Below, piece by piece: positions 26,337 through 61,234 of a stretch of 64,000 nt of DNA. Origin of the DNA: Peribolospora baueri. Lineage: Eukaryota. The stretch covers positions 1-64,000 of the forward strand of contig JAMDHS010000100.1 in the NCBI GenBank assembly GCA_029717555.1, written 5' to 3'. The notes under the pieces were generated by a model, which did not search any database, was not told where the DNA came from, and worked only from the letters and a program-made list of their open reading frames with translations. How positions within the stretch are numbered: position 1 is the stretch's first letter; each line of letters starts with the position of its first letter. Made by a program: the position numbers and the translations under genes.

Positions 26337-29300
26337 ATGGATCTCGGGGACGAGGCAAGACGAGCGCTGCAGGAGACAGGTCAAGATGAGGCTGTCGAAG
26401 TGAACCAGAGGGCGCTCATTGACAAGGTGAGACAGGCGTTGCCAAAGCAAGGACGGCGCTGTATTCCTCTTTGCCCGCGGCTGCGATCTTCCACAGACAT
26501 GCGCCAGAAATCGCCCTGACGTCACGAATCGCTACTCCTGCCATTTTGTGATTCAGATCCTTGCCCGCTACGCTGCCGAGGTGAGCGCCAATGGGTGGCT
26601 ATCCTGAAGTAATACAACCTTTCTCATCTGCGTTGCCTACTAACCGTCCCTGCAGTTCAGTTCCATTCGCGAACTGCTGCAAAATGCCGATGACGCAGGC
26701 GCCACATGCTGCGAGTTGCGGTTCGAGACAGTCAAAACCTCGTCTCCGCCTTCTCCATCTGCCTCCCAGCCGTCACCGTCCAGTGAAAGCTCCCTCCCGA
26801 CTGTAAATACTCCAGACCTGGCAGCCCTTCTGGGCCGATGGGTTTTCAAGAACGATGGCAAGCCTTTCACACAACAGGACTGGACGCGGCTGCGCCGCAT
26901 TGCCGAAGGGAATCCGGATCCAGACCGCATCGGTAAGTACAAGGAGTGTTTCCGTCTCCAGTTTGGCAGTGAGAAGAAGAGGCGGCTGGCGATACACACA
27001 TACCGACACGTACTCTCTACGCAGGCGCATTCGGTGTCGGCTTCTACTCCCTTTTCTCAGTCTGCGATGAGCCTATTGTCAGCTCTGGCGGCGAACTCAT
27101 GGGTTTCTGTGAGTCTACTTTGTGAATATGGCCAAATGTCTGCGATCGTAGGGGTTCTGATTCGCCCCCCCGCCTGGCCATCATCCCCTTCCCACTTCGT
27201 CTCAGTTTGGAAAGGAGATGCCCTTTACACTCGGCGCGCAAAGACGTCTGCTAGTGACAATGAGTTGTCTCCGGAAGGAAAGACCTGGACCACGTTTTTC
27301 ATGCCGTTGAGGGAGCCAGCTCCTTTTCCCGAGTCACCTCTTGAGCTTGCCCGCTTCCTCGCTACCAGCCTCACATTTACATCGAACTTGCGGCGCGTTC
27401 GACTGTGTTTTGATGATGTGGAACTTGCCAGTCTGTGAGTGCCATTTCCTCCATGTAAGCACCTATACGTTCGTCGTGCTCACCGTTGTCGTTGCGGGAC
27501 GTGGTGTCCTGCCAGCACCAAAGCATTGGCACCGGCGTCGACCATCTCCATTCCCTCTTCAATCAAGACGACCTCCCCTCAAAAGGTCTTGTCGGTGACG
27601 TCGATGGCCTCGACGCCTATGCAGATAGACCTCTCTGTCTTGCCTCTGGTTCTTCCCAAGCCTGTCAAAGACGTCCAAATCAACTTCAAGTCCATCGCCG
27701 CCTTGACCAAGTCAGGTGGTACATTTGCCAGCATGCTGTCCAGCGCGTTTGGGAGAAAAATGGAAAAGCGGGACGAGAAGTTGGATAAGACGGATAAGAC
27801 ACCAGAGCCGCCGGAAGAGCCGGTAGATCTCCTCAAGGCGGTTAAAGCGACTGCTCATTTGCGAATCGTGAGCGCTAGCGTCAAAGTACGCGTGGACAAG
27901 ACGCTTTCCAGGGAGCTGGAACGGGCGACAAAGGTGGGCAGCGTCATCTTTCTCGTGTATTCGCTCGTCGACCTGTTTTCTTATTGCGTTTCACCATCGT
28001 GAACACAGAAACCGCCTCCGTCCAATACTGCTGTGCAACTTATTTTCACCACAAGGGACGAGTACGCAGCTAGTGGCTATGGGGACGAGGGACAAAAGCA
28101 GGGCACGAAGGATAGGGACCCCAAAGCTGTATTCGAGGGCTTGATTCCAAAGCTCGAGTCACAGGGCAGAGTGTTTATCGGGTTCAGGTGGGTATACGCG
28201 GTGCGGCTGTTGATCCCGGTTTTTTAATTGTTGATGGAAGGCGTCGAACATTGATGTCTGTCCTCTTCTTTTGTCTCCACCAGAACACACCAGACTACAA
28301 GTATCTCGGGACACCTGGCCGCGCGCTTTATCCCGACGGTCGAACGGGAGTCCTTGGACTTTATTGATCGTTTCGTTGCAGCCTGGAACAACGAACTTCT
28401 TTATATTGCTGGTGTTGTTGCGCGCACCGTGTATGAAGACGAGATGCAGACGGTGGCGCGGCTGTGGCAAGAGACGGTCACAGGTGACTCCTCTCAAAGC
28501 GAGGGACCCAAGGAATGGCTTCAACAGCGAGCCCTGCACACTCTCAGGTTCTTCACTTGCCGGGCGTCCACTCGTGAGTCACGTTTCTCAAGAAAGCTCT
28601 TCGCAATGACTCTGACTGATTCGCATCCTTTGAGTTCTTAGCTTCCCCTCGAGTCAGCCAGGCGATCGAGTCGACGTTCTTCAGCAGCAGCCGCCATTCT
28701 GTGCTCCCTTTGATGTCATCTGCTGGCATAAAGCCGTCAAGCGAGGTTCGCTTTCCAAATGAGCAGCTTTCAGCTTTCCTCAAAGAGCTGCCCATCATCC
28801 CGCCAGCCCATGTGGAAGCGGCGCATGACATGATGGAACAACTGCGACAGCGCAATCTCGTATCGGATATTACTTTGACCGACGTGTTCTCCGAACTTTC
28901 AAAGAGACCACTCTCCTTAGATGAGACTGTGGCATTATTCCGATGGTGGATTGAACTGTCCGGTCAAGTCGGCTTCGAATCCAGCTGGCGACAGAACTTA
29001 GTGGAGAATGCCATTGTCGCTCTTCCTGACGACCGCCTTCAACCTCTTTCGATGGTCACCCAATACCTCAACCCTAAACATATACCGACCGACGTCCCGT
29101 TACCGTCAACTTGTCTCTACTACGACGTCACAAAACATTTTGCGCCTCAAGATCTCACTAGGGTGTTTGGCTTCGTCGAATTGTCTCTCGTGGAGTGGAT
29201 GCAACACCTCCGCGAACTCTCCGTGCCCTCCTCTTCGACCACTTCGACAAGTTCAAGCTTGACGAACATTCAACTATCGCCCGCTTTTGCGGTGAAGGTT

Positions 29301-32300
29301 CTCCTTATTCTCGCCCGCGCTTGGCCATCGCTTCCCGCGCATCGCCAACAGAGTCTCAAGGAGATAATGCAGGGGCTTACCTGCGTCCCGACGAAGCAAG
29401 GCATGCACAAGCCGCAGGACGCGTACTTCAGCATGGTAGACCTCTTCCCCGACTTGCCAATCGTCTACTTTCCGACGGCACCTGTGAAAGGCAACTTGGA
29501 GAAATTGCTTGCCGCGCTGGGAGTGAGGAAACACGTAGAGCTGCAACTGGTCTTTAGCCGGCTGATTGGAGCGGGTGAATGGTCTCACATAGGTCAGTCT
29601 TCTATTCCTAAATTTGAGTCTAGCAAGACCAGTACTTGACCCCTTTCTCTCTGCATCTCCTGACGTTTAGACCTTTTGCAATACTTGGCCGAGGTCAAAC
29701 ACACCTTGAGCGCAAACGAAATGGATAGACTTCGAAAGACGGCCATATTTCCGTGCGTTTACATGATCTTGGCACCTTGCGTGCCACATCGGCCCATTTC
29801 CTGACCATCCCTGACTACCCGTATTGATCGAGAATCGTTCATTCTTTCTACAGTAAGGAAGGGGAGCCGAAAGGCTCGCCTGGTCCTTCTGGACGACCGA
29901 GGACCATTCGTTATCGTGCGTCCGAACTCTTCGAACCCACGGCTTCCCTGCGCAAGTTGGGCCTACCGCTGATAGATTGGACCGGTACAAAGCCTTGGAA
30001 GCCCACGTCCGAAGAAGGTATGCTACCGCGCATCAGGTCGTGCACTTTTGTGTTGATTATCGATTTAGTTGACTTACTGATGCACGCTTCGTTTCGTCCT
30101 CGACTTTTCCAGCGAACTTCTGTTTCAGCCTTGGACTTCTCCGCATACCCCCTTTGGACCAGATTCTTAATCTGGCTTCCCATCCTAGCAACAGTAGCCT
30201 TCGCACGACAGCTCTGGAATTTTTCTTCGAGCGCTACCATACTCATTATGAGAAGGAGTACTCGCCCAAGGCTGCAGCAAGCTTTGCATTCGTTCCAGCG
30301 CTCGTGGGAGATGATACGAAAGCTCAGCTCAAGCCACCGACCGACGTGTTCACTAATTCGGCCGCCCGGATCATGCGTTGGCCGATCGTCGACACTGGGA
30401 TCTCGAGCGTTGACATGGCCAAATTGAAATTGAGGCTGGATCCTCCAGCATCGCAACTCATCGAGCGCTTGGTCAATTCTCCCCCTAGGGAGCACGACCT
30501 GGCTAGGAAGGTATTCGAGTACTTGGCTGGAGTGCAATGTGAGTGAACCGTCCATGGCGTCTTCCGTCTGGTTCCTGACCGTAAAGTCATTCTGCGTCGC
30601 GCAACTTCGCTTTCAGCCTTCAATCTCAACGATTATCAACTACTACGCGATGCCTCGTTCATCCCCGTTACGAGCAAAGATAAAAAGGCGCAGGACGGCG
30701 TCGTCTTCGTCCCTCCTTCCGCCGCTTACTTTGCTTCGACCTCGTCGGGCACCCCACAATTTGCGGAGATCTTCAGCTACATTGACTTTGGGCCAATCGC
30801 CGGCTCCTTCCTGCAAAATTGCGGTGTGCGGAACGAGCCATCCATCGACGAAGTGGCACAAGCTCTTGTTCGGGAGCCGCGCCGTTTCTTCACGCTTGCT
30901 GGAGGGTCTGAGAAGTGGGTGTCGTACTATATGGTGTACATTCAGGACTGGTGTCTAATCCCTTTGTGGACGTTCTTAAATCACCAGATATTGCGGGATT
31001 CTGCGATCAATCGCGGCTAGTTGGACCGTCCTCAAAGCCCCGCTTCGCTCGGAGATGAAGCGTTCGGCCTTCCTCTTAGGTTCCCGACGCGTAGCATCCT
31101 CGGATGGCACTGCGAATGCAGAGGATGATGAAGATGATGACCAATCCCCGCTGGAATACTCTCTTCGGTGAGCGCATCTGGATCAAATACGCCACGGCGG
31201 CGTGTAGAACATTTGAGGTCGCTCAAGCTGCTTTTCTTCTCGCACTGATCGGCAGCTTGGCCTCCGAGATTGTCGTAGGGGACGACCCTAACTCCTCGCA
31301 GCTGTTTGCGTCGTCGCTCTTCTTTGCTCCCCATGAAGATATTCTGACAGAACTCTACGAGCGTCTTGGATCCCCTCGCTTGAGGTGAGTTTGTTTGCTG
31401 GGATAACTTAATGGGCACCTGCTTATATTCGCTTTCCTACATCAGCTCCTTGGTCAAAGAGCGGTATGATGTGTTGGGAGCACCGCGCGGAGGCGTGCCG
31501 CTCGCGGAAGAAGTCAAGGTCAGTACCGTAGGAAGCATGCTTGACTGACTTATGATACCAAGCTGATTAGCCATTCCTTGAAAATTGTCTAGGCTCGCGT
31601 CCTTGAAAGGACCCCTCTTTTCCTACTGGAGAAAAAGCGCGCTGGGAGGTCCGAAGTTCTGCGGGAGGTGGACTGGCTGAAGAGATCCCTACAAGTATTA
31701 GTCGTGGGCGGTCGTGGCTTACATCTTACACGGGAGCTTCGTTTCGGCAAGGTCCACGCGACAAATGCTCAGGTCGTCAGCGCGACAGCAAGCTTGAAAG
31801 AAGGGATTCTGCTCCTCTACATCTCGGAAATCATTGAGGTTGACTGGTTTGAGGTTAGTGCTTCCCAAATGCTGTCCTTGTGGCCTGCCCGACTTTTCTC
31901 TCGCTGATAAGTGGCTGACCCACCGCATTCCACAGGTAGCAATGTCGTTAAGCAAATTCCTCGTCGCTCGTCAACGATTACCCGAGATCTTGCTCTTTGA
32001 GAAGCTTCTCTCGACATCTGTTCGTACAGCTGGTTGTTGGACTGCGAGGCTGGTAGCAAAGTCCTCTCTGACTATCCTTCCTCTACTTATCTTGGATGAC
32101 AGCTCCGCAATCTTAAGCGAAGAGGCTTCCATGTCGATCGGATTCTCGCCCAAAGGCGAGCAGACCGCGATGCCGCAGAGCAGCGGATACGAGAGGAACG
32201 ACTCGCTGCCGAAATGGAAAAGGTCGAACCCAAAGGCCCTTCACAGAGCGAGCTGCACGACTACAAGCAACGACTGCTGTCCGCCTTCCCAGATGCGGAC

Positions 32301-39198: not shown

Positions 39199-42100
39199 TT
39201 AGACACGGTAGTCTGCCGCTTCCAGAAGGGTAGGGATCTGGCAATGGAACAACAGGTGAAGAAAGGTTGCCGTCAGCTTCTGTATGAGCTTGAGTCTGGC
39301 GCGCAGCTCAGCTGGAGAACAAGTCATCCAAAGTCTAACTCACCACATTCGGCATCGCACGACTGGCTTCGGCCAGGCTGGCATTCAGGAACTTGGTCGG
39401 ATCGTCACCCGCCCAAGCGGCCGGATCAGCTTGAGCGGTGACTGACGCGCCAAGCTTGACGAAGGAGGCTTGGAACTCCGTCTCGTCAAAGTCGAGGAAG
39501 ATCTCTTCCGCCGCCGCTTGGTCGTTCTTCGTCAGCTGTCGAGGCTGCCGGCACAGCTGGACCAATGCTTGCAAAGTCTGGGGCCTGAGCGTTCGACCGG
39601 AGCGACATGTCAGCGTGCAAAGTGCGGTAACACATCGCCTCATTATGATGGCTCAGCTCGCACTTACCAGGCTCTAACTCGCGGCTCCTGCAACATGCTA
39701 TTTCCCTGGGTGAGAAGTCGTGCAAAGCCGACAATGACCACCTTGCGATCCCGCTCCGGCAGCTTCTGCAGCTCGGGCAGCACGATCCCTTGGAGAATCT
39801 GTTGGAACAGGCCTGGCTGTATAGATTCGTAGATGCCGACGAGGAAGTCTGGATCGAAACCATCGCGCCGAATTGCCAAGATATAGGCGTTGAAGTAAAT
39901 GAAGCCTTTGGTGAACTTGTCCGTCTTCGCCGTTTGCAACCGATTTAGGAGGAGCATGAAGATGGTCTTCAAAAAGGGCTGCAGGCCCGATCTGGCATAC
40001 ATACGAGTAGGAACAAGTATGGATCAGTCAAGATATTCTCGAAGAAACCTGGCAGGCGCTTGAGACAGCTTACAGCGGCAAGAACTCGAACAAAGCCTGC
40101 AACAACTCGAAACCGAATGTGTCGTTGATCCTGCTGCTGATTAGCCTTTGGTAGATGCCGAGGAGCGACTGCACCTGATTGTTAGCCACGAAACGGTCTG
40201 CGCCCCGGACGAGGAATGCGCGTAGAAGGCGGACGAGAGCAGGTACATTGCCACGCTGCTCCCACGGCTGGGGGGTGAGCAAAGGAGGGAGAATGGACAT
40301 GTAGAGCGGAGGCAGCTCCCCAGAACCTCGAAGCTCCAGCAGTTGGGATAAGATCTGGAAGACATAAGGCGCAAATTCTGTGGAACGAAGTGAAAACAAT
40401 CGATGAAGGTAAGGCTCAGGAAAGCGAAGACGCACATATGAGGTAGACAGCCACTAACCGACGGTGTCGCTCGTCAGGATGGTCTGGAATGAAGGCATAA
40501 GGGCAGCCTCAAATTCGGGAACCGCGTCGGCGTTCGTCGAGGCAACAAAGCGAATGAGCGCAGAAATCGATTCGAAGGTGAACTGGTTGAATTTAGGGTT
40601 GCTCGGGTTCTTGGAAATCTCCGTAACGATGCTGACGAGGTGGGACAAAACGTCGGAGAAGACTGGCAGAAGTGTCTGGCGTGCGGTCACAATGACGCGC
40701 ATGACACCTGACAAGTAAGAGATGACATTGGTGTACCGGTCAGCCTCCTCGTACGGGTTAGCGAGAGTTTGCGTACGCACATTTCATTAAGTAGTCGTTC
40801 TCAGCGATCTTCTCTGGTGTCCGGCCCTGCTCGATTTTCTTGAATAGGGCCATCAAAATGTTGTTCGCAAAGGGCCTCACGTCGGCCTGAGCGAAGAGCA
40901 GCTGACCGCCCTGCTTGATGAAAAGCACTCGCTCGATTGTGATAGCCGCATACGAGCATACGACATAGTTGGGTGACTCCAAGTGGTGCACCAGAAGAGG
41001 GAGGACTGACAAGAGTTGGTCCTTGGTGAGCTGTTAGAATAGACGCCGTGCACACTGGCAATCAGTTAACCCTGTCGGAATCTCAGGCGGCAACCAAAAC
41101 AAGCGCACCTGATTCCTAAACGTGTGCAAGTACTTGATGGCGTCCACAACGAGAATGGGAGTAGTCGCATCGCCCGTGCCCTGTAAATCGGCAAACACGT
41201 TGTCGGAGAAAAACTTGACTACGTCTACGCCGACATTCGTTGAGGTGACGCCCTGCGTGGCCGTGCTGCCGCGAGCCGCAATAGAGGTAAGGAGGTAGAT
41301 GGCTGTGTCTTTTTGCTTCCAGTTCGCCGCCGGAGAAGCATTATATTGCTACAGAACGCACATCGAAAACGTCAGTCAGAGACAGGGTGGAGCGCCGTTG
41401 GCTGCTCGGACACATTGCCCAGGAAGCCTTACCTGAAGGTAGAGACGGATGTATCGGCCGACAATGTTTGTCACCTGCCCCTCAAATTGCTCCATCAGCG
41501 CTTGGGTAAAGTCGGTAGCGGCCTTGCGGCGTGTGTCACTTTCAGTGCTCGGTTCAAGGTCTCGTCGAATGAACTCTATCGGGTCGTCCTCGAACAATTC
41601 CTCATCGAGAGCTATAAGAGTCAAATAAGAAAACGAGGTCAGTGACCTATCCATTTCCTGTCGACAAAGACAAGTAACTTGGACGTACTCCGGAACTTCA
41701 TATTCGGCAAGACGATCGCTTCGCAGAAGCGTTCGAGCGTGGCGTCATCTTGGAAGAGGTGGCGTTGGGAGGGTAAACGGACCACCGACGAAAGGAACCG
41801 CATGGCCTTGGATACCAGCTACAATTAAGGAAGGCAAAGATACCGGGGCGAGAAATGTATAGGTGAGCCTCTTCAACTGAAAACGCAAAGGGCAGGTCAC
41901 GCACCAAATCGTCCTTCGGGATTGGCTCACTCCCCGCCTCTTCCGCTCCCTTGCCCAGACCGATCAACATTTGCCAAACGTCTTGCACAAAGAGCGGCAA
42001 CTCCTTTTCTCCAAAAACGTCGAGATAACGCTGAGTATACAGTTCCGCAATCTCACAGACGGCGCTGCGGATGTTCTCAAGCGGACCGGGTGCCGCCTCG

Positions 42101-43182
42101 TCCGGGTCGGAAACGAGCTCGGGACGGGCGAAGGCGAGATATTTTCGGAGAATGGCCATCAGAGCGCTGTGGTTGTCTTCAAAGAAAGGAGGAAGGTCTT
42201 GCGAGTTGAGATCATAGAAGATTTGAAGGAGCAGATACATGGCGTTTGAGATGAGGGGAAGTTGATGTGCCGGCGTGGAAGGCTCGGAGAGCAGGGCATC
42301 GGTTCGCTGATAAAACGTAGAATGAGAAAGTTTTCAGCAAAACTTCCTGCTTTCCAGAACAGAGCTGCCTGAACACACCCGCAACAGCTCTCCATATGGC
42401 TCGCAGAACTTGGAGAGGACGAAGAGGATCTCCGAGTAGAGAGCATCACTCCTGAACATGCTACGCCATCGGCGAAAGATAGAGTGTGCCGTGTCCAGCA
42501 CCCCAACGTTAACTCCGTAATCGTCTGGGGATAGGTTGGACAGGAGCATCTACACAAGAGAATAAATAAGGGGAAGACAGACCGAACAGGAGGGGTCAGA
42601 TGAGAGCTCGAGTGGAAACGGAAATGTGGCAAGGACACTCACGTCGATAAGGTTATCCCACCGGTCTGGAAAGTCCTTCTCTGCAATGATGGACACCGCC
42701 TCTCCCACCTGTACCCTGAGTGAAGGAGCCGCCTGCGTTGATCCTTCTGTTGTGCGAGACAAAGCGATCATCAGCGGTACCAACTGTGCTTTGATGGCGG
42801 CTCGATCGGGCTCGCATATAAGGTTCAAATCTTCTTCCTGCAAATACAGAAAAAGAGAACATCAGCCATCACGTAAACGAACTCCGTCGGTGCGTCGACA
42901 GGCGACGGAGAGGAGGCGAATGAACATAAACGCGCGACCGCTCACCTCCCCCCAAGCCCTCCTGCACAAATTCTTGAAGTACAACGCAGCGGCCAAGCGT
43001 ACCGGGCCTCCGCCGGGAACGTTTGCATCTTCGACGAGGCTGAGAAGGAGGAGAGAGAAGCCCGGCTGGGACTCGCCGGCTGCGAGCTCGGTCTCAGCGC
43101 CTCGTCGGGTGGGCAGATCGGGCGAGAGTGAGGCGACGAGGAGACTCGCAACGCCTGAGCGCTGTGTGGGGTCTACGGACAT
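39199..43182 (-). CDS. CSE1: Exportin-2 (importin-alpha re-exporter); 3' end approximate
   Basis: RLAAALYFKN, DFPDRWDNL, FYDLNSQDLPPFFED, EELFEDDPIEFIRRDLE, ENDYLMKC, KNPSNPKFN, GNVPALVRLL. Confidence 0.95.
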
Positions 43183-43884
43183 GTTCGTTGCTGTATCGTG
43201 AGGTATCTGTGGTGAGGATGATGGGAAAGGGAATGTGGAAGAGTGCTGATGGGAGTGGCACGAAGACAAAGAAAGGAGAGCGTATGAACTGATCGACGTA
43301 TTTGACGCGTCCTGCTTTCTCAGCCACGTGACTTGCGACGACGACGGCGGACGGGGGACAACCGCAGCCCACCCCCGGCAGAGTGGCAGCACGTGACGTC
43401 ACGCACATTTCTACGGCGTTACATTTCTAGTTCAATACCTAGACCTTCTTCGTCTTTGACCATGGAAGGCAACAGGTTCTGCCCAAGATGTAGGAAAGAG
43501 GTCCCTCTCTGGTAAATGTTTTCTGACTCGACCAATGCGGCTTTTAGAGATGTCTGGTGCTTGAAATCAGTCTTAATGAGATTATGTTTCATTCTAATAT
43601 ATATAAAATCGTCGTTGCTTTTTTTGAGTTCTGATCGCTACTTTCCCTTTCCTTTTCCCGTAACAAGTGTCACCCCTCCCTCCGCGCCTCAGGCGTGCCT
43701 GGCGCGCCGCCCAAATGTGGCGATTGGTCATGGTAGCGTCTCACGGCGTCACGTGCTCCCTTCCGCTGCATTCGCCATGACCAAGAAAAATCATGGCCGG
43801 TCCAGTTGGACTCTTATATAGATCGAGCGCGCCCGTGTGTGTTCCGTCCGGTGTTGTTGACACTGTCGTATCGAACCTCTCATC

Positions 43885-44532
43885 ATGTAGGCAGTAGCTT
43901 ATTCTCAGTCGCCGTCGTTACCAGACGATACGCGCAACACGGACAAGGAGAAAGGCAAGCGCAAGGCGAAGGACGCAGAGGAGGTGAAATCTACACAACG
44001 CACGCTCGCGTGGATGGAGCCTGGCGCCAATAGACACGCCGTTTTCAATTTGCTCTTCGCTCTCCGCCACAGGATGCGGTCGTCTACGACGATCTTGAGC
44101 CAAAGCGGAAACGACGCAAGAAGGACGACTCGGTGAAGGAGGTGGATACAGGCAAGCAACAGAAGGGGAAGAGAATGAGGAAGCCGAAGGAAGAGGTCAG
44201 TCTGTCTGCGAGCCTTTGCATGCTCCCGTCGAGCCGTCTGAGCTTTTTCGTCGCTGTTTAGTTAAACTTGAACTTTTTTTTTTCTTCAGCAACACGTTAT
44301 ACGGGCCTGTCAGCGCTGCGGTGCGGTCGTCCCGCTGGACCGATCCGATGGCCGTCGAACCCGATGTGATGCGTGCCAGCGCGTTTCACAGCGACCCTGT
44401 CGACAGTGCGGACGGCTCTTCTCGGATCGGGGTACCCAGGTTACCCGCTGTCGGCACTGCCGAGCTCAAGATCTACCAGCGCCACGCACACGCGCCTGTA
44501 ATCTGTGCGGACGAAGATTAGGTGCTTACTGA
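43885..44532 (+). pseudogene. Three-exon Lys-rich / tandem CxxC gene remnant with nonsense codon at position 2
   Basis: TATATA at ~43816; ATG-TAG at 43885-43890; exons 43885-43983, 44073-44195 and 44290-44532 joined by phase-0 GT-AG introns; CQRC, CDAC, CRQC, CRHC, CNLC in exon 3. Confidence 0.6.
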
Positions 44533-44566
44533 CGATTAGGCCGGTGCGCTGACTGCCGCCAAACCA

Positions 44567-45060
44567 GTGACCGACAGACAGCGGTTGCCACTGGGATATA
44601 CCTCATCCATGCACAGCTGGAAGCCGCTGGAACTGGGCCGAATGACGGTCGAATGCCCGTCCTGTGCAGCGATGCACTGGGAGCGTGAGCTTCGACCCGT
44701 GCCTGGCGCTGGATTGGCCTGCTCTCCATGCTGCTGCTCCAACGGATCGGTCAGCCTGGATCCATTACCCACCCCTCCGCCGGCCGTGCAGGACCTCTTC
44801 GCCTCGAATTCGGCGCTGGCGCGGCGGTTTCGCGCGCACATTCGCCCCTTGAACACCGCGCTGTCGTACACTTCCATGTCCTACACGCCCGATCCCCGGC
44901 TGCGCCCGCACGAATTCAACTACATCTTCCAGCTGCAGGGCGCCATCTACCATCTCCAGGACCCGCTCCGAGGCGCCATGCCTGGCCACGGGCAGCTGTA
45001 CTTCCTGGACCCGAATGACGCCAACCAGATCCGCCTGGACCACTATCCCTCCATTGCTGC
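44567..45060 (+). mobile_element. Helitron RepHel N-terminal fragment
   Basis: LGRMTVECPSCAAMHWERE..CCSNGSVSL..PP..L..FRAHIRPLNTALSYTS..FQLQGAIYH..GQLYFLD fits the conserved pre-Rep region of Helitron proteins; truncated before the Rep and helicase domains. Confidence 0.88.
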
Positions 45061-45121
45061 GGATCTGGAGATCCGACATCGTCACCAGTTGCTCGTACGA
45101 GCTCTTCTTTGCTTGCAGAGC

Positions 45122-45350
45122 AAGCAATTGCGTCCTTTCTCAGTCATTTCCGTCATTGTGGTATCAATCCGGTTTACATGCACACCGACAAGGATTGGGG
45201 CAGAAATCATCGCTTGTAGATGTCTGCATTGGCAGATCACCGGTTACCCACCCTACAAGCGATGATTTCTGCCCCGGTCCTTGTCGGTGTGCATGTAAAC
45301 CGGATTGATACCACAATGACGGAAATGACTGAGAAAGGACGCAATTGCTT
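45122..45350. repeat. 98-bp inverted repeat with 33-nt spacer (arms 45122-45219 and 45253-45350)
   Basis: Arms are 96/98 complementary; a further inverted block pairs 45091-45122 with 45425-45458. Confidence 0.97.
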
Positions 45351-46268
45351 TTGTCTTCGCCTTTTTGGGAAGAGCTCTGGATGGAGGGAGCAAGAGGTAC
45401 CCAAGAGGATATCCTGCGCCGTCATGCTCTGCAAGCACAGAGAAGAGCTTGTACGAGCCACGGTTTGTGCGGTCTGAATGAGAATGGAGAAATTAGATGT
45501 CGACTTTTGTCTCTCCTTTCTCTGCAAGAAGGAACTCCGTAGTCCTCACAGGTCGCATCAAGTACGACCTCTTTTGTGTCCTTACAGCGCTTGACAATCT
45601 CCGGACAAGCCCAGGCAAGTGCATCGACCCCTGCAACCTCTACATCAAGCAACTCTGCCTTTCGTGATGCCATCACCTGCTGTCGTGCTGACTCCATTGA
45701 CCCGCTCTTCAGACCCTTAACTTGCCACTGCTTCCGTGACTTCACCATCCACCAAAACGCACTTGGGCCTTTGAAGCTTTCGCCAACAAGTTCTTCCCTG
45801 CCTTCTCCTTCCCTCCGTAAGTAATTATATAGCTGGAGCGGCGTCAGGTCGAGATTGCTGAAAATGTACTCCTTTTCAGAAGTTGGGATAGTCCTGTCGT
45901 GATAGGTATGTTCATGGTGGCGATGTCGGATCTTCAGAATGGCAAGCTGCTTCTCAATGTTGATGTTGATGTTGAGTTTGCCATGGCAGCGGACGAAGAC
46001 TTGTCGTGTGTTCATCATGCGCTTGCACTCATCTTCTGGTACAGGCCACTTACACTTGTCTTGATCCTGTGCACAGTAGTACCTCCAGTTTGGAGAGGTA
46101 TACGTGGCATCTCGGCCGTCATTGCTTTTAAATGAATGAAACACAATCTCATTAAGACTGATTTCAAGCACTAGACATCTCTAAAAGCCGCATTGGTCGA
46201 GTCAGAAAACACTTATATCCAGAAAGGGACTTCTTTCCTACATCTTGGGCAGAACCTTTGCCTTCCAT
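45220..46268 (-). pseudogene. Mutator-like (MULE) DDE transposase, frameshifted and 3'-truncated
   Basis: YYC..C.G.L..H.HH WRKY/GCM-like DNA-binding motif; removing intron 45474-45549 gives VVLDATYRTNRGSYKLFSVLAEHDGAGYPLGY; second Asp region HTDKD followed by a +1 frameshift before EIIAC. Confidence 0.85.
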
Positions 46269-46549
46269 GGTCTCAAAGACGAAGGAGGCGTAGTATTGAA
46301 GTAGTGCAGAAGGGAAAGGAGAAGTGGTCGGAGGAACAGAGAGTGCCGCGCGGGTAAGCGGCGATGTACGACGACGAAAAAGCGTGCAGAGCATCACGTG
46401 ACGGCACGTGCTGCCACTTTCCCGGGAGTGGGCTGCATTTTGTCGCAAGGCGTGGGAATTGCCGCAGCCTTTTGGAAATCCGGCCTTGGAAGCTTCCTTC
46501 TTCTGGATACACCGTCGTCTCATCTCGCCTCGTCTCGCCATCAGTAGTC

Positions 46550-48806
46550 ATGCCCGACGCCTTCTTCCAGCGCAAACGCAAGCGTGCGTCTACCTCGGGA
46601 ACGTCTAGGCCCAAACTTTCCGCGGGCAGATCGGCCCCAAAGCGACGAGCGAAGGACTCGGATCTGTCCTCCGAGGAGTCGGACGGTGCTGGGGATGGCA
46701 TCGCCGACCTCGATTTGCGGCATGACTTTGACGCCGTGGGCAGCGACGAGGAGGCAGAAGGAGAGGACAAGGAGACACCGCAGGAGACGAGGTTAAGATT
46801 GGCTAAGATGTACCTTGAAGGTCTTCAGCGGGATGTGGACGAGACAGAGGTTGATGCCGCTCAGATCGACCGCGATATCATCGCAGCTCGACTTCAAAAG
46901 GACGTGGTGAGTCTTCTTTCACTGCAGGCGAACCTGGACATCCTAATCACGATGGTTTTTAACTTCTTGTCCGATTCTTATCATTTTTTAGCTTGAGCAT
47001 GACGGAAAGATGCACCTTCGTCTCGCCGAGCAACTTGTTCCCCCCTCGCCGTCATCCCTACTCTCCACGCGCGGTCACCGCCTCTCAGTCACTTCCGCCG
47101 TTGCCTCCGACGACGGAAAGTCGCTCTTTACAGCCGGGAAGGAAGGGACCATTATACGTTGGAATCTCGATACGGGAGTGCAGACTACTCTATTCCCCCG
47201 AAGAGGGCAAGCAGTGGACGTAGTGAGGCACAAGGAGAAAAGATTAAGGGCAAAAGGCAAGGCTAACGGCGCCATGATAGACAAGACAGAGGAGGAAGAT
47301 CTGGAGCAGAGTCCCAAGCCTGCGCCCACCACCACTACCAACGGAGAGAGGTTCCGGGCTGTCCGAAGAACAGTAGCGCGCTCGGCGGACCAAGGCCACC
47401 AAGGCGAGGTTCTTACTCTCGCCATCAGCTCCGACGGAAAATGGCTGACCAGTGGGGGTCGAGACAAGAGGGTGGGGGTGTGGGACGTGGGAAAAATCGG
47501 AGAAGAGAGTTGGGTCCGTGGTTTCGGCGGGCACAAGGACGCGATAACCGTGAGTGCTTTGGCCAGCCTCGCGTTTGACGTGGCTTGAGATGACATTCAC
47601 TGCGTTCTACGGCATTTCTCCAGGCTTTGGTCTTTCGGTCAAGCTCCACGGAGCTTTTTACTGCCTGTCTCGACCGCACTGTCAAAGTCTTCGACCTCTC
47701 CCAAATGACTTACGTCGACACACTCTTCGGCCATCAGGACTCGATCCAAGACATCGACGCTCTGCAAGCCGAAACAGCCGTTACTGTGGGTGGAAGAGAT
47801 AAGACGGCGCGTTTCTGGAAGGTACGAGACGAGAGCCAGCTCGTGTTTCGTGGAGGAGGGCGGAGCAAGGTCAGAGAGGTGATCGAGGGAGGAGGCGAGG
47901 ACATGGAAGAAATGCTGGAGGAGGCCGAGGGTGGACCGGCGGAGGATGGAGAGCCAGCACAAGCAGCAAAGAAGGCAAAACCAACTTCGAATACTGTCAA
48001 GTTCGTGGAAGGCAGTATCGACTGCGTGGCCATGATCGACGAGAGCAACTTTGTAACAGGAGGTGACAGCGGGTGCGTCATCGTTTCGTTATCGCCTTCA
48101 AGAGCCTTACAGCGTGGTTGCTAATCCTGACCCGCTTTGTTTTTTAGATCGCTTTGCCTGTGGAACATCGGCAGAAAGAAACCAGTGTTCACTTACGCAC
48201 TTGCTCATGGCCTTCATGAGCACGTCAGCGAGACGGAAGGTGTGGTTGGCACTCCTCGATGGATCACGGCCGTTGCAGCCCTCCGATACGGAGACGTATT
48301 CGCAAGCGGTGCGTGAGGCGGACGGTACCCAAGCTTATCGCTCACCGGAAGTCAGGGTCTCATCCTGTGTCGTCATTTTTATTTTAATTTTTTATTTCTC
48401 CGCAGGTTCTTGGGAGGGCATGGTCCGGTTATGGGCCATCCAGCCATCCCTCCGCTCCTTCTCCCCACTCTTCGAGGTGCCGGCCGTCGGCTTCGTCAAC
48501 TCTCTTCAATTCGTCCTTCCGCCTCCTCCGAATGCCATCTTGCCAGATCGGTGGTCACGCCGGAAGCCACGAGACGGCGAGGCTTCCACACGCCAGAACG
48601 AGACGTCGACGGTGCTTGAGAATCAGGGAGAACCTGAGACCGGCGAACGAGTAGGGCAGGAAGGCAGTCTGATCACCAAAGACGGCACTCCAGCACCGGT
48701 CCTGGTCATCGGCGTTGGGCAAGAACATAAGACGGGACGGTGGATGCGCATCAAGGAAGCGAGGAACGGCGCGATCGTCGTACCGTTCCGCTTCAAGACG
48801 TCGTAG
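46550..48806 (+). CDS. RRP9: U3 snoRNP-associated WD40 protein
   Basis: MPDAFF..KRKR, ETPQETRLRLAKMYL, IAARLQKDV, GHKDAIT, YVDTLFGHQD, TVGGRDKTARFWKV..SQLVFRGG, EGSIDCV, GQEHKTGRW. Confidence 0.95.
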
Positions 48807-58358: not shown

Positions 58359-61234
58359 CTATTCGTCCGCGAGTACGGCGAACGCGTTCGAGCCTCCCTG
58401 GGCGTCCAGCGCGACCTTGCCGCTGGTCCCGCCGCTTATCTTCTGGTTCTTCCTTTGTCGCTTCTTTTCCGACTTGCTCTCTCCCACGAAGATGGCCGAT
58501 TCCAGATCCTCCTCCACCGCGCTGAGCACTTGCGCGTACTCCTCCTCGTCCACACCCACGTCGTACTGGCCAAACGGAGGCCGAGAGGCGCTACCCTGGC
58601 GTACGGCCGCTTCAAGAATAGAGTGAAAGATGCTGCCCTCATAGAAGACGTGAGAGGCAGGTAAGGGCGCAGGAGTGAGGAGGAGGCTTTCGGCGAGCTG
58701 GTGGGACGCATCAAGGACAAACTGAAAGGTCGTGGAGAGGTGGATCGCCCTTGACGTCGGCCCGGAGACGTTCGGAGATTCGGACGGAGAGAACATTGCC
58801 TGTCCGCGGGTTGCCTGTTTGCGCCAACGACACGCCACCAGGCCCGCCCTGACGGCAGCTCTCACTTCCTCGCGCCTCCACAAACGTGAACGCTTGACGC
58901 CCGCATTGATCATCTCTCCGCGAATGATGTGTCGTAGAGAGGCGACCAGTGGAAGCAGAAAGGGTGAGACCGTCTCGAGGGCGACACGGGAGGATAAGGC
59001 GTGAAGGTAAATGGCGATCCGCGTAGACTCTGGCAGCGACGGCGCAGGCAAGCGTGTCGGTTGCATGAGAGCGAGGAGTTCTTCAGGAAGTTTTCCATAT
59101 CCAGCCTCGGCAGCGCTGGCTGATAGCATGTGCTCGAGAGGCACGATTAGCACCGGCTCAGACCGGAGTCGTTCGCCTTTTCTCACATACTCCACGACCA
59201 TAGCGTCTGGCTTGTCCTCCTTCTCCTCCGCCTCGTCCTCGTGCACCGAAGATTCCGGCGTCGTGATGTCGGTAAGAGCGTCCAGGTCTTCGTCCACAGA
59301 CGTCTGGCCATTCGGATCCTCTCCGTCGGAATCCTGCTCCCTGCAAGCATCTGGGCCGCGGGCCCAGCTCAGACCCCAGGCCGAAAAGACGACAGCGTAC
59401 CACCACCGCCGAATATCCCTTGCCAGGGTGACGTTGTTGCTCTGTCTGTCGGGATCTTCGGGGAACACTTTGGGTAAGAAGATCCGATGAGCCATGACCT
59501 CGAGAAGGGTGGGATTCAGGCGTCCGCTCTTGTATGCTTCGAGGTAGAGTGCGAGAGCCTGGCGACGAGCGCAGAGCAATTCGGCCGGCGCCAAGACGAT
59601 GACGCCGTTGCTCGACGACGAACTGCTATTGATCTCGGTCTCCCAGGCAGCAAGGTCACCCTCGACCCCAGAGTCATTATGCGCTCCATCCGTCGCCATG
59701 CCCTCCACCCCTCCTTCTCCGATCCAGAACTCGTCAAGTTCCTCGGTGCCCGAGAACGCCATGACGCGACTGTACGTGCAGACGCTATCGATGATATCCT
59801 GCACCACCTTGTCACGCTCTCCTGACACGATAAAGTCATGGTCACTCCCACCTCGCCCGTCCCCTCTTCGTCGTCCAGCAGAACGAGCGTTCGCAAGAAG
59901 AGCGTCCACAGAAAACTCGACCATCTGCCGGACAGGGTCGAGTGCAGGCATGCCGGAGGCGGCGCTCCCCGCAACCGAATCACCGCGTGCAAACTTGCGC
60001 CACTCGTTTTGGATCGCGCGCGCGGCTTCATAGATCCTCTCACTGCTGGACATACCCTGGAAGTAGAGGTGGCCAAAGTCGAAATAGTCGTTGCCGACCA
60101 ACGCCGCCAGCAGCGGAAGCAGGGATGCAGGGATGGAAAGATGGACGGCGAGGGCGTGGGCAGAGTATGCAGCGAGTCGGACACCAGACAGGCGAACCTC
60201 TGAGGAGAGCCTCGGCGGCGGCGTGCGCGAAGGGCGTGAAGAGAGTTGTGGGTCACGGCGTGGGTCCCATCGAGTCTTGCCCTTCTTTACCGTCTGAAAC
60301 CCATCATCGTCGGCAGACGCCTCCGTGCCACCGTCCACGCCTGTCTCTTCGATCTCCCAGGCCAGCTCGTCAAGAGGGACGTACCCTTTTCCGTTCCTCC
60401 CTCTGGCGCAGAGAACGAAATAATCTGAATCTTGGCTCACAGCGTACCCTCCTAAAGCTTCAGCAAGCGCTGCAACGCTCGAGTCGGCTTCGGTGGCGGC
60501 GAAGCGCACTTCCACGTTCGCAGATGAATTTCGGGAGCAGGCGGCGGAACCGCAGTGATCCTCCACGGGCCCGTACAAAGAGTCGATGGGAGCATAGCAA
60601 GGTCGAAAATCGTCAAGCGCGGCCAGCGTCGCTTGATAAATCATGGGAGCGAGGAGGCCGATGTCGCGCTGAAACTTGCGCGAGGAGCGAAGTGAAGGCG
60701 AAGCGCGCATGAATGATGAGTTATTGCCGACGAGGCGAGAGAGACGGGAGATGACGGTGGCATGCTTGAGAGGCGGAGTTGGACCGTCAAAGATAAAGAT
60801 GGGGCGCAGACCGACAGCGCTGCAAGCATCGGTGGGTTAGAAGGAGAGAACTGACGTGAGCGGGTCGATGAAGCGGCCACGTATGTACTCACATCCATGA
60901 GGCCACGATGTCTTTCACGAGCTCCTCATATCGAGCGTAATCGCCTCCTTTGTGCCATTCACTGCAGAAGCCCATATAGACCTTCCGGTTCAAAGAAAGC
61001 CAAGACAGGCGATTATCAGCGAGGCCCGACAGACATTGGTCTCCTGTCAAAGGTCTATATGCCCACCCAAAAAATGAACGCCCATCCGTCGATCACCAGC
61101 GCCGTCCGTTGTCGCCCATCGCCGCCGGTCGCTCCCGTCACGCCGTCTTCGTTTGTCCAGAATGGAAGCAAGATATCAGTGGCGACGGTGCGCCTGATTC
61201 TGGTGGCGAAACCGCCCAGGCCCTTGACGCCCAT
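58359..61234 (-). CDS. Asteroid-like XPG/PIN-fold nuclease-domain protein
   Basis: MGVKGL, LVIDGWAF, GGDY, FIFDG, EAD, SQDSDYFV, LAALVGNDY. Confidence 0.88.

Follow-up and report, generated by a model that had tools for sequence, protein, structure and literature searches.

A foldback of Mutator-like transposase sequence with a nested Helitron fragment between CSE1 and RRP9 of Peribolospora baueri: probable transposon debris

Inverted repeats born of transposons are known as sources of silencing. According to excerpts of PMC10827316, the maize locus Mu killer, an inverted repeat, silences Mutator/MuDR elements in trans and heritably, and endogenous inverted repeats (endoIRs) give rise to small RNAs without an RNA-dependent RNA polymerase, with a possible effect on neighbouring genes. 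A table of PMC5751038 describes Mutator-like elements (MULEs) as ubiquitous among fungi, and PMC7763443 reports losses of RNA interference (RNAi) from several lineages of basidiomycetes, among them Ustilago maydis and Cryptococcus deuterogattii. Among the papers listed by full-text literature searches, judged by their listings and the beginnings of their abstracts, none pointed to a fungal locus that arose naturally from a transposon and silences in trans as Mu killer does. The island described here (positions 43364-46436) separates the genes CSE1 and RRP9 in the first 64,000 nucleotides (nt) of contig JAMDHS010000100.1 of Peribolospora baueri (assembly GCA_029717555.1), a stretch referred to below as the window. 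It consists of the 5' part of a MULE transposase gene, facing a degenerate inverted copy of itself in which a truncated Helitron is nested. An earlier note on this DNA had proposed a fungal equivalent of Mu killer and had given inert rearrangement debris as its own alternative. The alternative fits the visible evidence at least as well as the silencer: about two-thirds of the left arm is deleted, the arms are diverged by about 5% in substitutions and carry indels besides, and the copy from which they derive had its frameshift already. The island is probably inert, old, nested transposon debris of palindromic origin.

Architecture and content of the island

Inverted repeats were sought in the interval 42500-47500, and the interval 43000-46900 was compared by blastn with the whole 64-kb window. 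The four inverted pieces listed in the earlier note were all recovered in this way, and a weak fifth was added (Table 1). The inverted pairs are far beyond chance, and the single foldback which the note placed near 45236 is borne out, as the pieces are colinear, lie in the same orientation and are symmetric about 45236. The two arms break at one and the same position of the transposon sequence, 45219 being paired with 45253. Judged by relaxed tblastn searches and a three-frame reading, the 33-nt spacer between them may or may not continue the transposase of one of the arms. Further copies of island sequence were found by blastn nowhere in the 64-kb window. Two extra inverted pairs (I8 and I9; 24 and 21 nt, 75-86% identity) extend outside the island and were set aside as chance matches.

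Table 1. Features of the island and of the genes at its sides. Positions are those of the window; for the pieces of the left arm, the counterpart is the stretch of the right arm of which they are inverted copies.
Feature	Positions	Strand	Counterpart	Agreement with counterpart	Content
CSE1 (importin-alpha re-exporter), 5' part	40758-43172	-			PF03810 IBN_N; PF08506 Cse1 on 3 of 3 frames tested
Left arm, outermost piece	43364-43403	+	46397-46436	90% (36/40), E 5e-9	
Left arm, outer piece	43427-43594	+	46134-46304	91% with gaps (157 matches, 9 substitutions, 4 gaps), E 4e-61	ATG 43462, first exon, intron-like stretch of ~40 nt, start of exon 2
Helitron 5' part, truncated	43595-45063	+			AT-rich junction, lysine-rich and cysteine-rich exons, N-terminus of Rep/helicase (homology 44398-~45090)
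TATA-like box TATATAG	43815-43821	+			Within the Helitron part
Junction piece (weak fifth pair)	45064-45087	+	45915-45938	22/24 nt, E 0.005	At the exact Helitron/MULE junction; MULE-derived or junction homology
Left arm, inner short piece	45088-45122	+	45425-45461	86% (33 matches, 2 substitutions, 2 gaps), E 3e-5	~74 nt deleted between this piece and 45122-45219
Left arm, innermost piece	45122-45219	+	45253-45350	98 nt, 98% (96/98), 33-nt spacer; blastn match over both arms and spacer E 8e-83	
Unique spacer (loop) at the symmetry centre	45220-45252	.			33 nt
Right arm	45253-46436	-			Upstream region, ATG (46268-46266), short first exon, first ~40% of MULE transposase, end after TDKD
Intron in the right-arm transposase	45474-45549	-			76 nt, canonical, GTGAGG...TTCAG, read from sequence
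RRP9 (U3 snoRNP WD40 protein)	46551-48806	+			WD40 matches; relatives named Rrp9-like or Rnu3ip2

The right arm had been described as the upstream region and 5' half of a MULE transposase, a description which remote homologues and the Pfam family PF10551 confirm. Stop-free frames span 45422-46180 (252 codons) and 45253-45492 on the minus strand. The former was searched against 1.84 billion representative proteins at E values up to 1e-3, and 26 remote homologues were found, the best at E 3.4e-8 and 32% identity, none below 1e-10. This exhaustive search yielded nothing above 40% identity, a value reached over 93 residues only. Because the raw reading frames of the island match no MULE or Helitron family of Pfam at E up to 0.1, the MULE identity was taken from the homologues. 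Aligned to the window by tblastn, 23 of the 26 match, all of them solely within 45277-46165 on the minus strand. PF10551 (MULE) was found in three of eight homologues analyzed (P0002, P0015, P0016) and begins at the end of the window alignment; the other five gave no Pfam family.

The arm corresponds to the region N-terminal of the PF10551 domain and reaches into it, as seen with P0002 and P0011, which feature a second tblastn segment (45468-45277) extending into the MULE domain. P0002 aligns in two segments, 46165-45551 and 45468-45277 (residues 84-306 and 309-372; combined E 1.8e-20), and the gap between them coincides with the intron at 45474-45549. Removal of the intron joins the two frames and produces the motif DATY/RTN. 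The catalytic aspartate motifs expected of a MULE, DxT...TDKD, are read in the right arm as DATY and TDKD. The coding sequence ends just past TDKD, around residue 420 of the 1051-residue relative P0015. A complete element would possess the whole DDE domain and terminal inverted repeats, and would be flanked by a target-site duplication of 9-11 bp; the island holds a fragment. Its MULE is distant from all proteins of the 1.84-billion library and therefore is, as judged from these alignments, an undescribed lineage-specific family. The fragment is open over some 330 codons across the intron (45253-46180), although the first exon has lost its in-frame connection to it. Synthesis of a truncated DNA-binding protein from an internal methionine is conceivable.

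Of the 1184 nt of the left arm about 385 survive. According to the alignment, the losses correspond to an indel of ~69 nt near the outer end, to deletions of ~74 and ~453 nt, and to ~195 nt replaced by 1469 nt of other DNA (43595-45063). Microhomology was considered as a cause of the ~74-nt deletion and dropped, as both AGCA copies are kept at the junction. The start ATG reported at 43462 is present, and its partner is found at 46268-46266 on the minus strand. The junction piece 45064-45087 and its counterpart 45915-45938 both encode ..IRHRH.., and weak tails of the Helitron protein alignments cross the former. The piece may be MULE-derived, or may mark homology where Helitron and MULE were joined.

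The earlier note had recorded about 1.5 kb of foreign DNA with a TATA box and spliced exons in the left arm. The segment does replace the middle of the arm and points to the centre of the island, but it is not anonymous, as it corresponds to the 5' end of a Helitron. The frame 44540-45063 is 51% identical to protein P0027 (E 3e-42). Pfam finds in P0027 nothing other than sub-threshold cytochrome-like noise from the cysteine-rich part. Longer relatives of P0027 all carry PF14214 Helitron_like_N (19 of 19), and 11 of the 19 carry PF05970 PIF1 as well. The homology covers the N-terminal ~175 residues upstream of PF14214, with 46-50% identity to P0028 and P0029, in which both domains are found. 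A look-up in the ESM Atlas, with a score of 0.96 to a cluster named Helitron helicase-like, agrees with this identity. The six Helitron proteins aligned to the window all match solely 44398-45103 on the plus strand, and no other Helitron sequence was found in the window with them. Helitrons have a 5' TC terminus and a 3' hairpin followed by CTRR, and insert between A and T. Here the 5' junction (43594/43595) is AT-rich and has no clear TC terminus; the 3' end is absent, the element being truncated at ~45063. With the insert identified as the 5' end of the Rep/helicase gene of a Helitron, the TATA-like box and the exons most likely belong to the 5' region of that Helitron.

Over 363 aligned nt the pieces of the two arms show 19 substitutions (14 transitions, 5 transversions), a substitution divergence of about 5%, and indels besides. 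An extra G after TDKD, found in both arms, shifts the frame off the AEI..A motif that is conserved in the homologues. The copy that was duplicated was therefore defective already. Both arms have the same short first exon, whereas three contigs of other genomic copies diverge after 43506. By these comparisons the arms are each other's closest relatives. Two adjacent T/C changes are the sole differences in the 98-nt core. Because of them the left arm reads TDKDW (45184-45198), as in the homologues, and the right arm TDKDR (45277-45288), so that the more decayed arm retains the ancestral state at this site. Repeat-induced point mutation was rejected: the right arm has a TpA/ApT ratio of 0.64 and a (CpA+TpG)/(ApC+GpT) ratio of 1.3 and, judged by the index thresholds, does not differ from the flanks.

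Copies and age of the island in public DNA runs

Contigs of four DNA runs, all from one study, were compared with the interval 41800-48000. Runs X1 and X2, which contain 0.97 and 0.95 of the sampled words, derive from organism A; runs X3 and X4 (0.38 and 0.37) from organism B. Organism A is the same organism as that of the window, and its runs are possibly the assembly's own source. Its short-read contigs reproduce the flanks exactly to 43487 and from 46182, at single-copy depth. Interior segments (43543-44061, 44099-44340, 44451-44813, 45321-45856) are likewise reproduced without difference and at single-copy depth. With the exact island pieces at this depth and no target-site duplication at the edges, nothing points to transposition of the foldback itself.

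Flank contigs of organism B are diverged by about 1% (18 differences and 8 gaps in 1688 nt on one, 23 differences in 1708 nt on the other) and enter both outer arms, to 43487 and from 46293. Both outward-facing MULE ends hence predate the split of organisms A and B, and the structure is old. For the interior of the island, the matches listed for organism B comprise only diverged short pieces, with 3-19 differences per ~130-170 nt.

Within the island the summed contig depth, a measure which is not copy number, is 2-8 times that of the flanks in all four runs, and is made up of many diverged contigs. Diverged MULE and Helitron copies therefore reside elsewhere in both genomes. Over 45526-46353, MULE depth is 6-15 times flank depth in organism B (X3, X4) versus 3-8 times in organism A, which suggests a more abundant family in organism B, as far as summed depth can stand for abundance. 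In X1 and X2 one contig of single-copy depth links 45273 and 45516 on opposite strands, and features four A>G differences at 45299-45328. It may represent another rearranged inverted MULE copy, or an effect of mapping to a palindrome.

Origin of the island and competing readings

CSE1 and RRP9 are both transcribed away from the island, and their ATGs lie ~190 and ~115 nt from its edges. The island therefore splits a divergent promoter of ~300 bp. In the order of events that we infer, an already defective MULE would have been sitting in this promoter when its 5' part (~1.2 kb, to just past the second catalytic aspartate) was copied back onto itself. The most likely route is repair of a break at ~45236 by fold-back or by a switch of template, and the product would have been a palindrome with a 33-nt loop. 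One arm would then have decayed, through the ~69-nt indel, the ~74- and ~453-nt deletions and the replacement of ~195 nt by the truncated Helitron 5' end. The ending of both arms at one transposon nucleotide argues for copying of this kind, and against two independent insertions.

Several points weigh against debris of this origin. Inertness is a default assumption rather than a result. An insert of 3 kb has been kept in the promoter of two essential genes in two organisms, which fits a role or harmlessness. The 98-nt core is better preserved than the rest of the arms, with 2 differences (2%) versus 17 in 265 nt (6.4%); the contrast is marginal (Poisson P about 0.05), and could reflect gene conversion from arm to arm or some constraint. 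The ~330 open codons of the right arm exceed the expectation for very old junk, though not significantly. Reading of the sequence at the island edges (43364/46436) detected no target-site duplication, and the original ends are undefined. The central junction (45220-45252) is bridged by none of the contigs listed for the four runs.

The reading that survives best next to old debris is a silencer resembling Mu killer, in which transcription starting in the Helitron 5' region, or at the MULE 5' ends that face inward, would yield a hairpin, and small RNAs cut by Dicer would repress the MULE family, perhaps also the Helitron, in trans. Such a silencer is unlikely, although the geometry is right, the MULE 5' part being duplicated in inverted orientation with a promoter-bearing fragment pointing inward. 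As many as three inward-facing 5' regions, those of the two MULE ends and of the Helitron, could drive transcription. The 441-nt centre has a predicted folding energy of -295 kcal/mol versus a mean of -136 for 100 shuffled sequences (z -28). In a predicted fold of the entire island (3073 nt) every piece of the arms is paired with its counterpart (97, 160, 37 and 57 pairs). RNA from the island, if made, would have to fold as a hairpin and, in any host equipped with RNAi, would serve as a substrate of Dicer, possibly as a by-product. Diverged family copies in both organisms provide potential targets, the structure has been retained in both, and Mu killer, as outlined in parts of PMC10827316, is a precedent. 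On the other hand, small RNAs come from any transcribed inverted repeat without a regulatory role, and the near-perfect stem measures only 98 bp. A difference at 4 sites, within a stretch of 30 nt, separates the stem from the sole paralogous contig seen over it, and targeting by small RNAs of the stem would therefore be imperfect. RNAi, moreover, cannot be assumed in a basidiomycete-like host, given its loss in several lineages reported in PMC7763443. A similarity of the central hairpin (45195-45276, minus strand) to the Rfam family mir-5985 scores 30.4 bits versus a gathering score of 100, and was discarded as a chance match of a generic hairpin.

Alternatively, the island could be a single MULE with long terminal inverted repeats, 43364-43594 and 46134-46436 being its two ends, and the 98-nt core and the two small pieces a secondary internal inversion. 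Long terminal inverted repeats are typical of MULEs, and the outer pieces lie exactly at the edges of the island. These pieces, however, hold the ATG, the first exon, the intron-like stretch and ~45 nt from the start of exon 2, an unusual content for a terminal repeat, and are colinear and co-oriented with the inner pieces. The missing target-site duplication counts against this structure too. A weaker objection comes from contig depth. Once the island's own two arms are subtracted, the extra depth of the outer arms amounts to 3.4-4.2 (X1) and 3.8-4.8 (X2) flank equivalents versus ~3.3 and 4.4-5.2 for the internal right arm, whereas about double would be expected of repeats present at both ends, with the reservation that summed depth is not copy number. 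A single element of this type is distinctly doubtful.

Two independent head-to-head MULE insertions, followed by deletion of both 3' parts, are very improbable: MULEs prefer gene 5' regions and the site is a divergent promoter, but both arms break at the same element nucleotide, a symmetry that deletion between independent copies would not produce, and have the frameshift and the short first exon in common. Hardly more credible is a chimeric assembly join of opposite-strand reads of one truncated MULE; palindromes are a known failure mode of assemblers and no listed contig crosses the centre, but the left arm is no mirror image, having substitutions, deletions and a Helitron insert of its own, each outer arm is entered from its own side by flank contigs of two organisms, and the left interior (43543-44061, 44099-44340, 44451-44813) is found exact at single-copy depth.

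Genomic setting and comparison with known systems

The best relatives of Rrp9 reside in Agaricomycetes (36-45% identity), and the contigs of the DNA runs total ~23 Mb, which suggests, as far as sequence can tell, that the host is a small-genome basidiomycete without close relatives in the databases. The remainder of the window is gene-dense and ordinary, and no match to a transposon or RNAi family was found among 92 further reading frames, a result that concerns the window and is silent on the rest of the genome. The housekeeping genes identified there include those for transaldolase, a 2OG-Fe(II) oxygenase, CybS, a mitochondrial carrier, a proteasome subunit, biotin-protein ligase, and G-patch, CobW, Spo7 and F-box proteins. 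A large multi-exon gene (26644-31017, plus strand) features sacsin-like and DUF3684 matches over at least 6 frames. The longest unexplained frame of the window is a stop-free stretch of 825 codons (58362-60836, minus strand), in which no Pfam family is found at E up to 1e-5.

As old debris, the island is a well-resolved case of transposon decay, in which a dead MULE duplicated by fold-back, the Helitron fragment nested in it and a series of stepwise deletions can be followed in the shared promoter of two essential genes. We give little chance to its being a fungal counterpart of Mu killer, that is, a transposon-born hairpin locus kept between two essential genes in at least two organisms, where small RNAs from Helitron read-through would restrain the MULE family and possibly the Helitron as well. 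Were the hairpin expressed, a case conserved between organisms would be an opportunity to ask by what means a family of DNA transposons is first recognised in fungal genomes.

With known fungal MULE and Helitron families the island shares homology sufficient for the N-terminal half up to the MULE domain and the N-terminus of the Helitron Rep/helicase to be recognised. Its MULE differs from known families in that the best identity is 32% and nothing falls below E 1e-10. Arabidopsis endoIRs are likewise transposon-derived inverted repeats near protein-coding genes. They are poorly conserved between accessions and act via DNA methylation, whereas the island is common to two organisms about 1% apart.

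Mu killer resembles the island more closely. In both, the 5' part of an autonomous element of the Mutator superfamily is duplicated in inverted orientation, and a neighbouring promoter-bearing sequence is oriented for read-through into a hairpin RNA. For Mu killer, transcription, small RNAs and heritable silencing in trans have been established by genetics; the island is known from its sequence. Unlike Mu killer, it has lost about two-thirds of one arm, contains a Helitron fragment, has arms diverged by ~5%, and resides in a basidiomycete host; fungi are not known to have the plant pathway of RNA-directed DNA methylation.

Internally deleted and rearranged Mutator derivatives arise from interrupted gap repair, and foldback-type non-autonomous elements are comparable. 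In contrast to such elements, neither a target-site duplication nor a second identical copy was found for the island. It shares with both kinds of elements short colinear pieces, deletions, filler sequence at the transposase breakpoint, and two outward-facing 5' ends.

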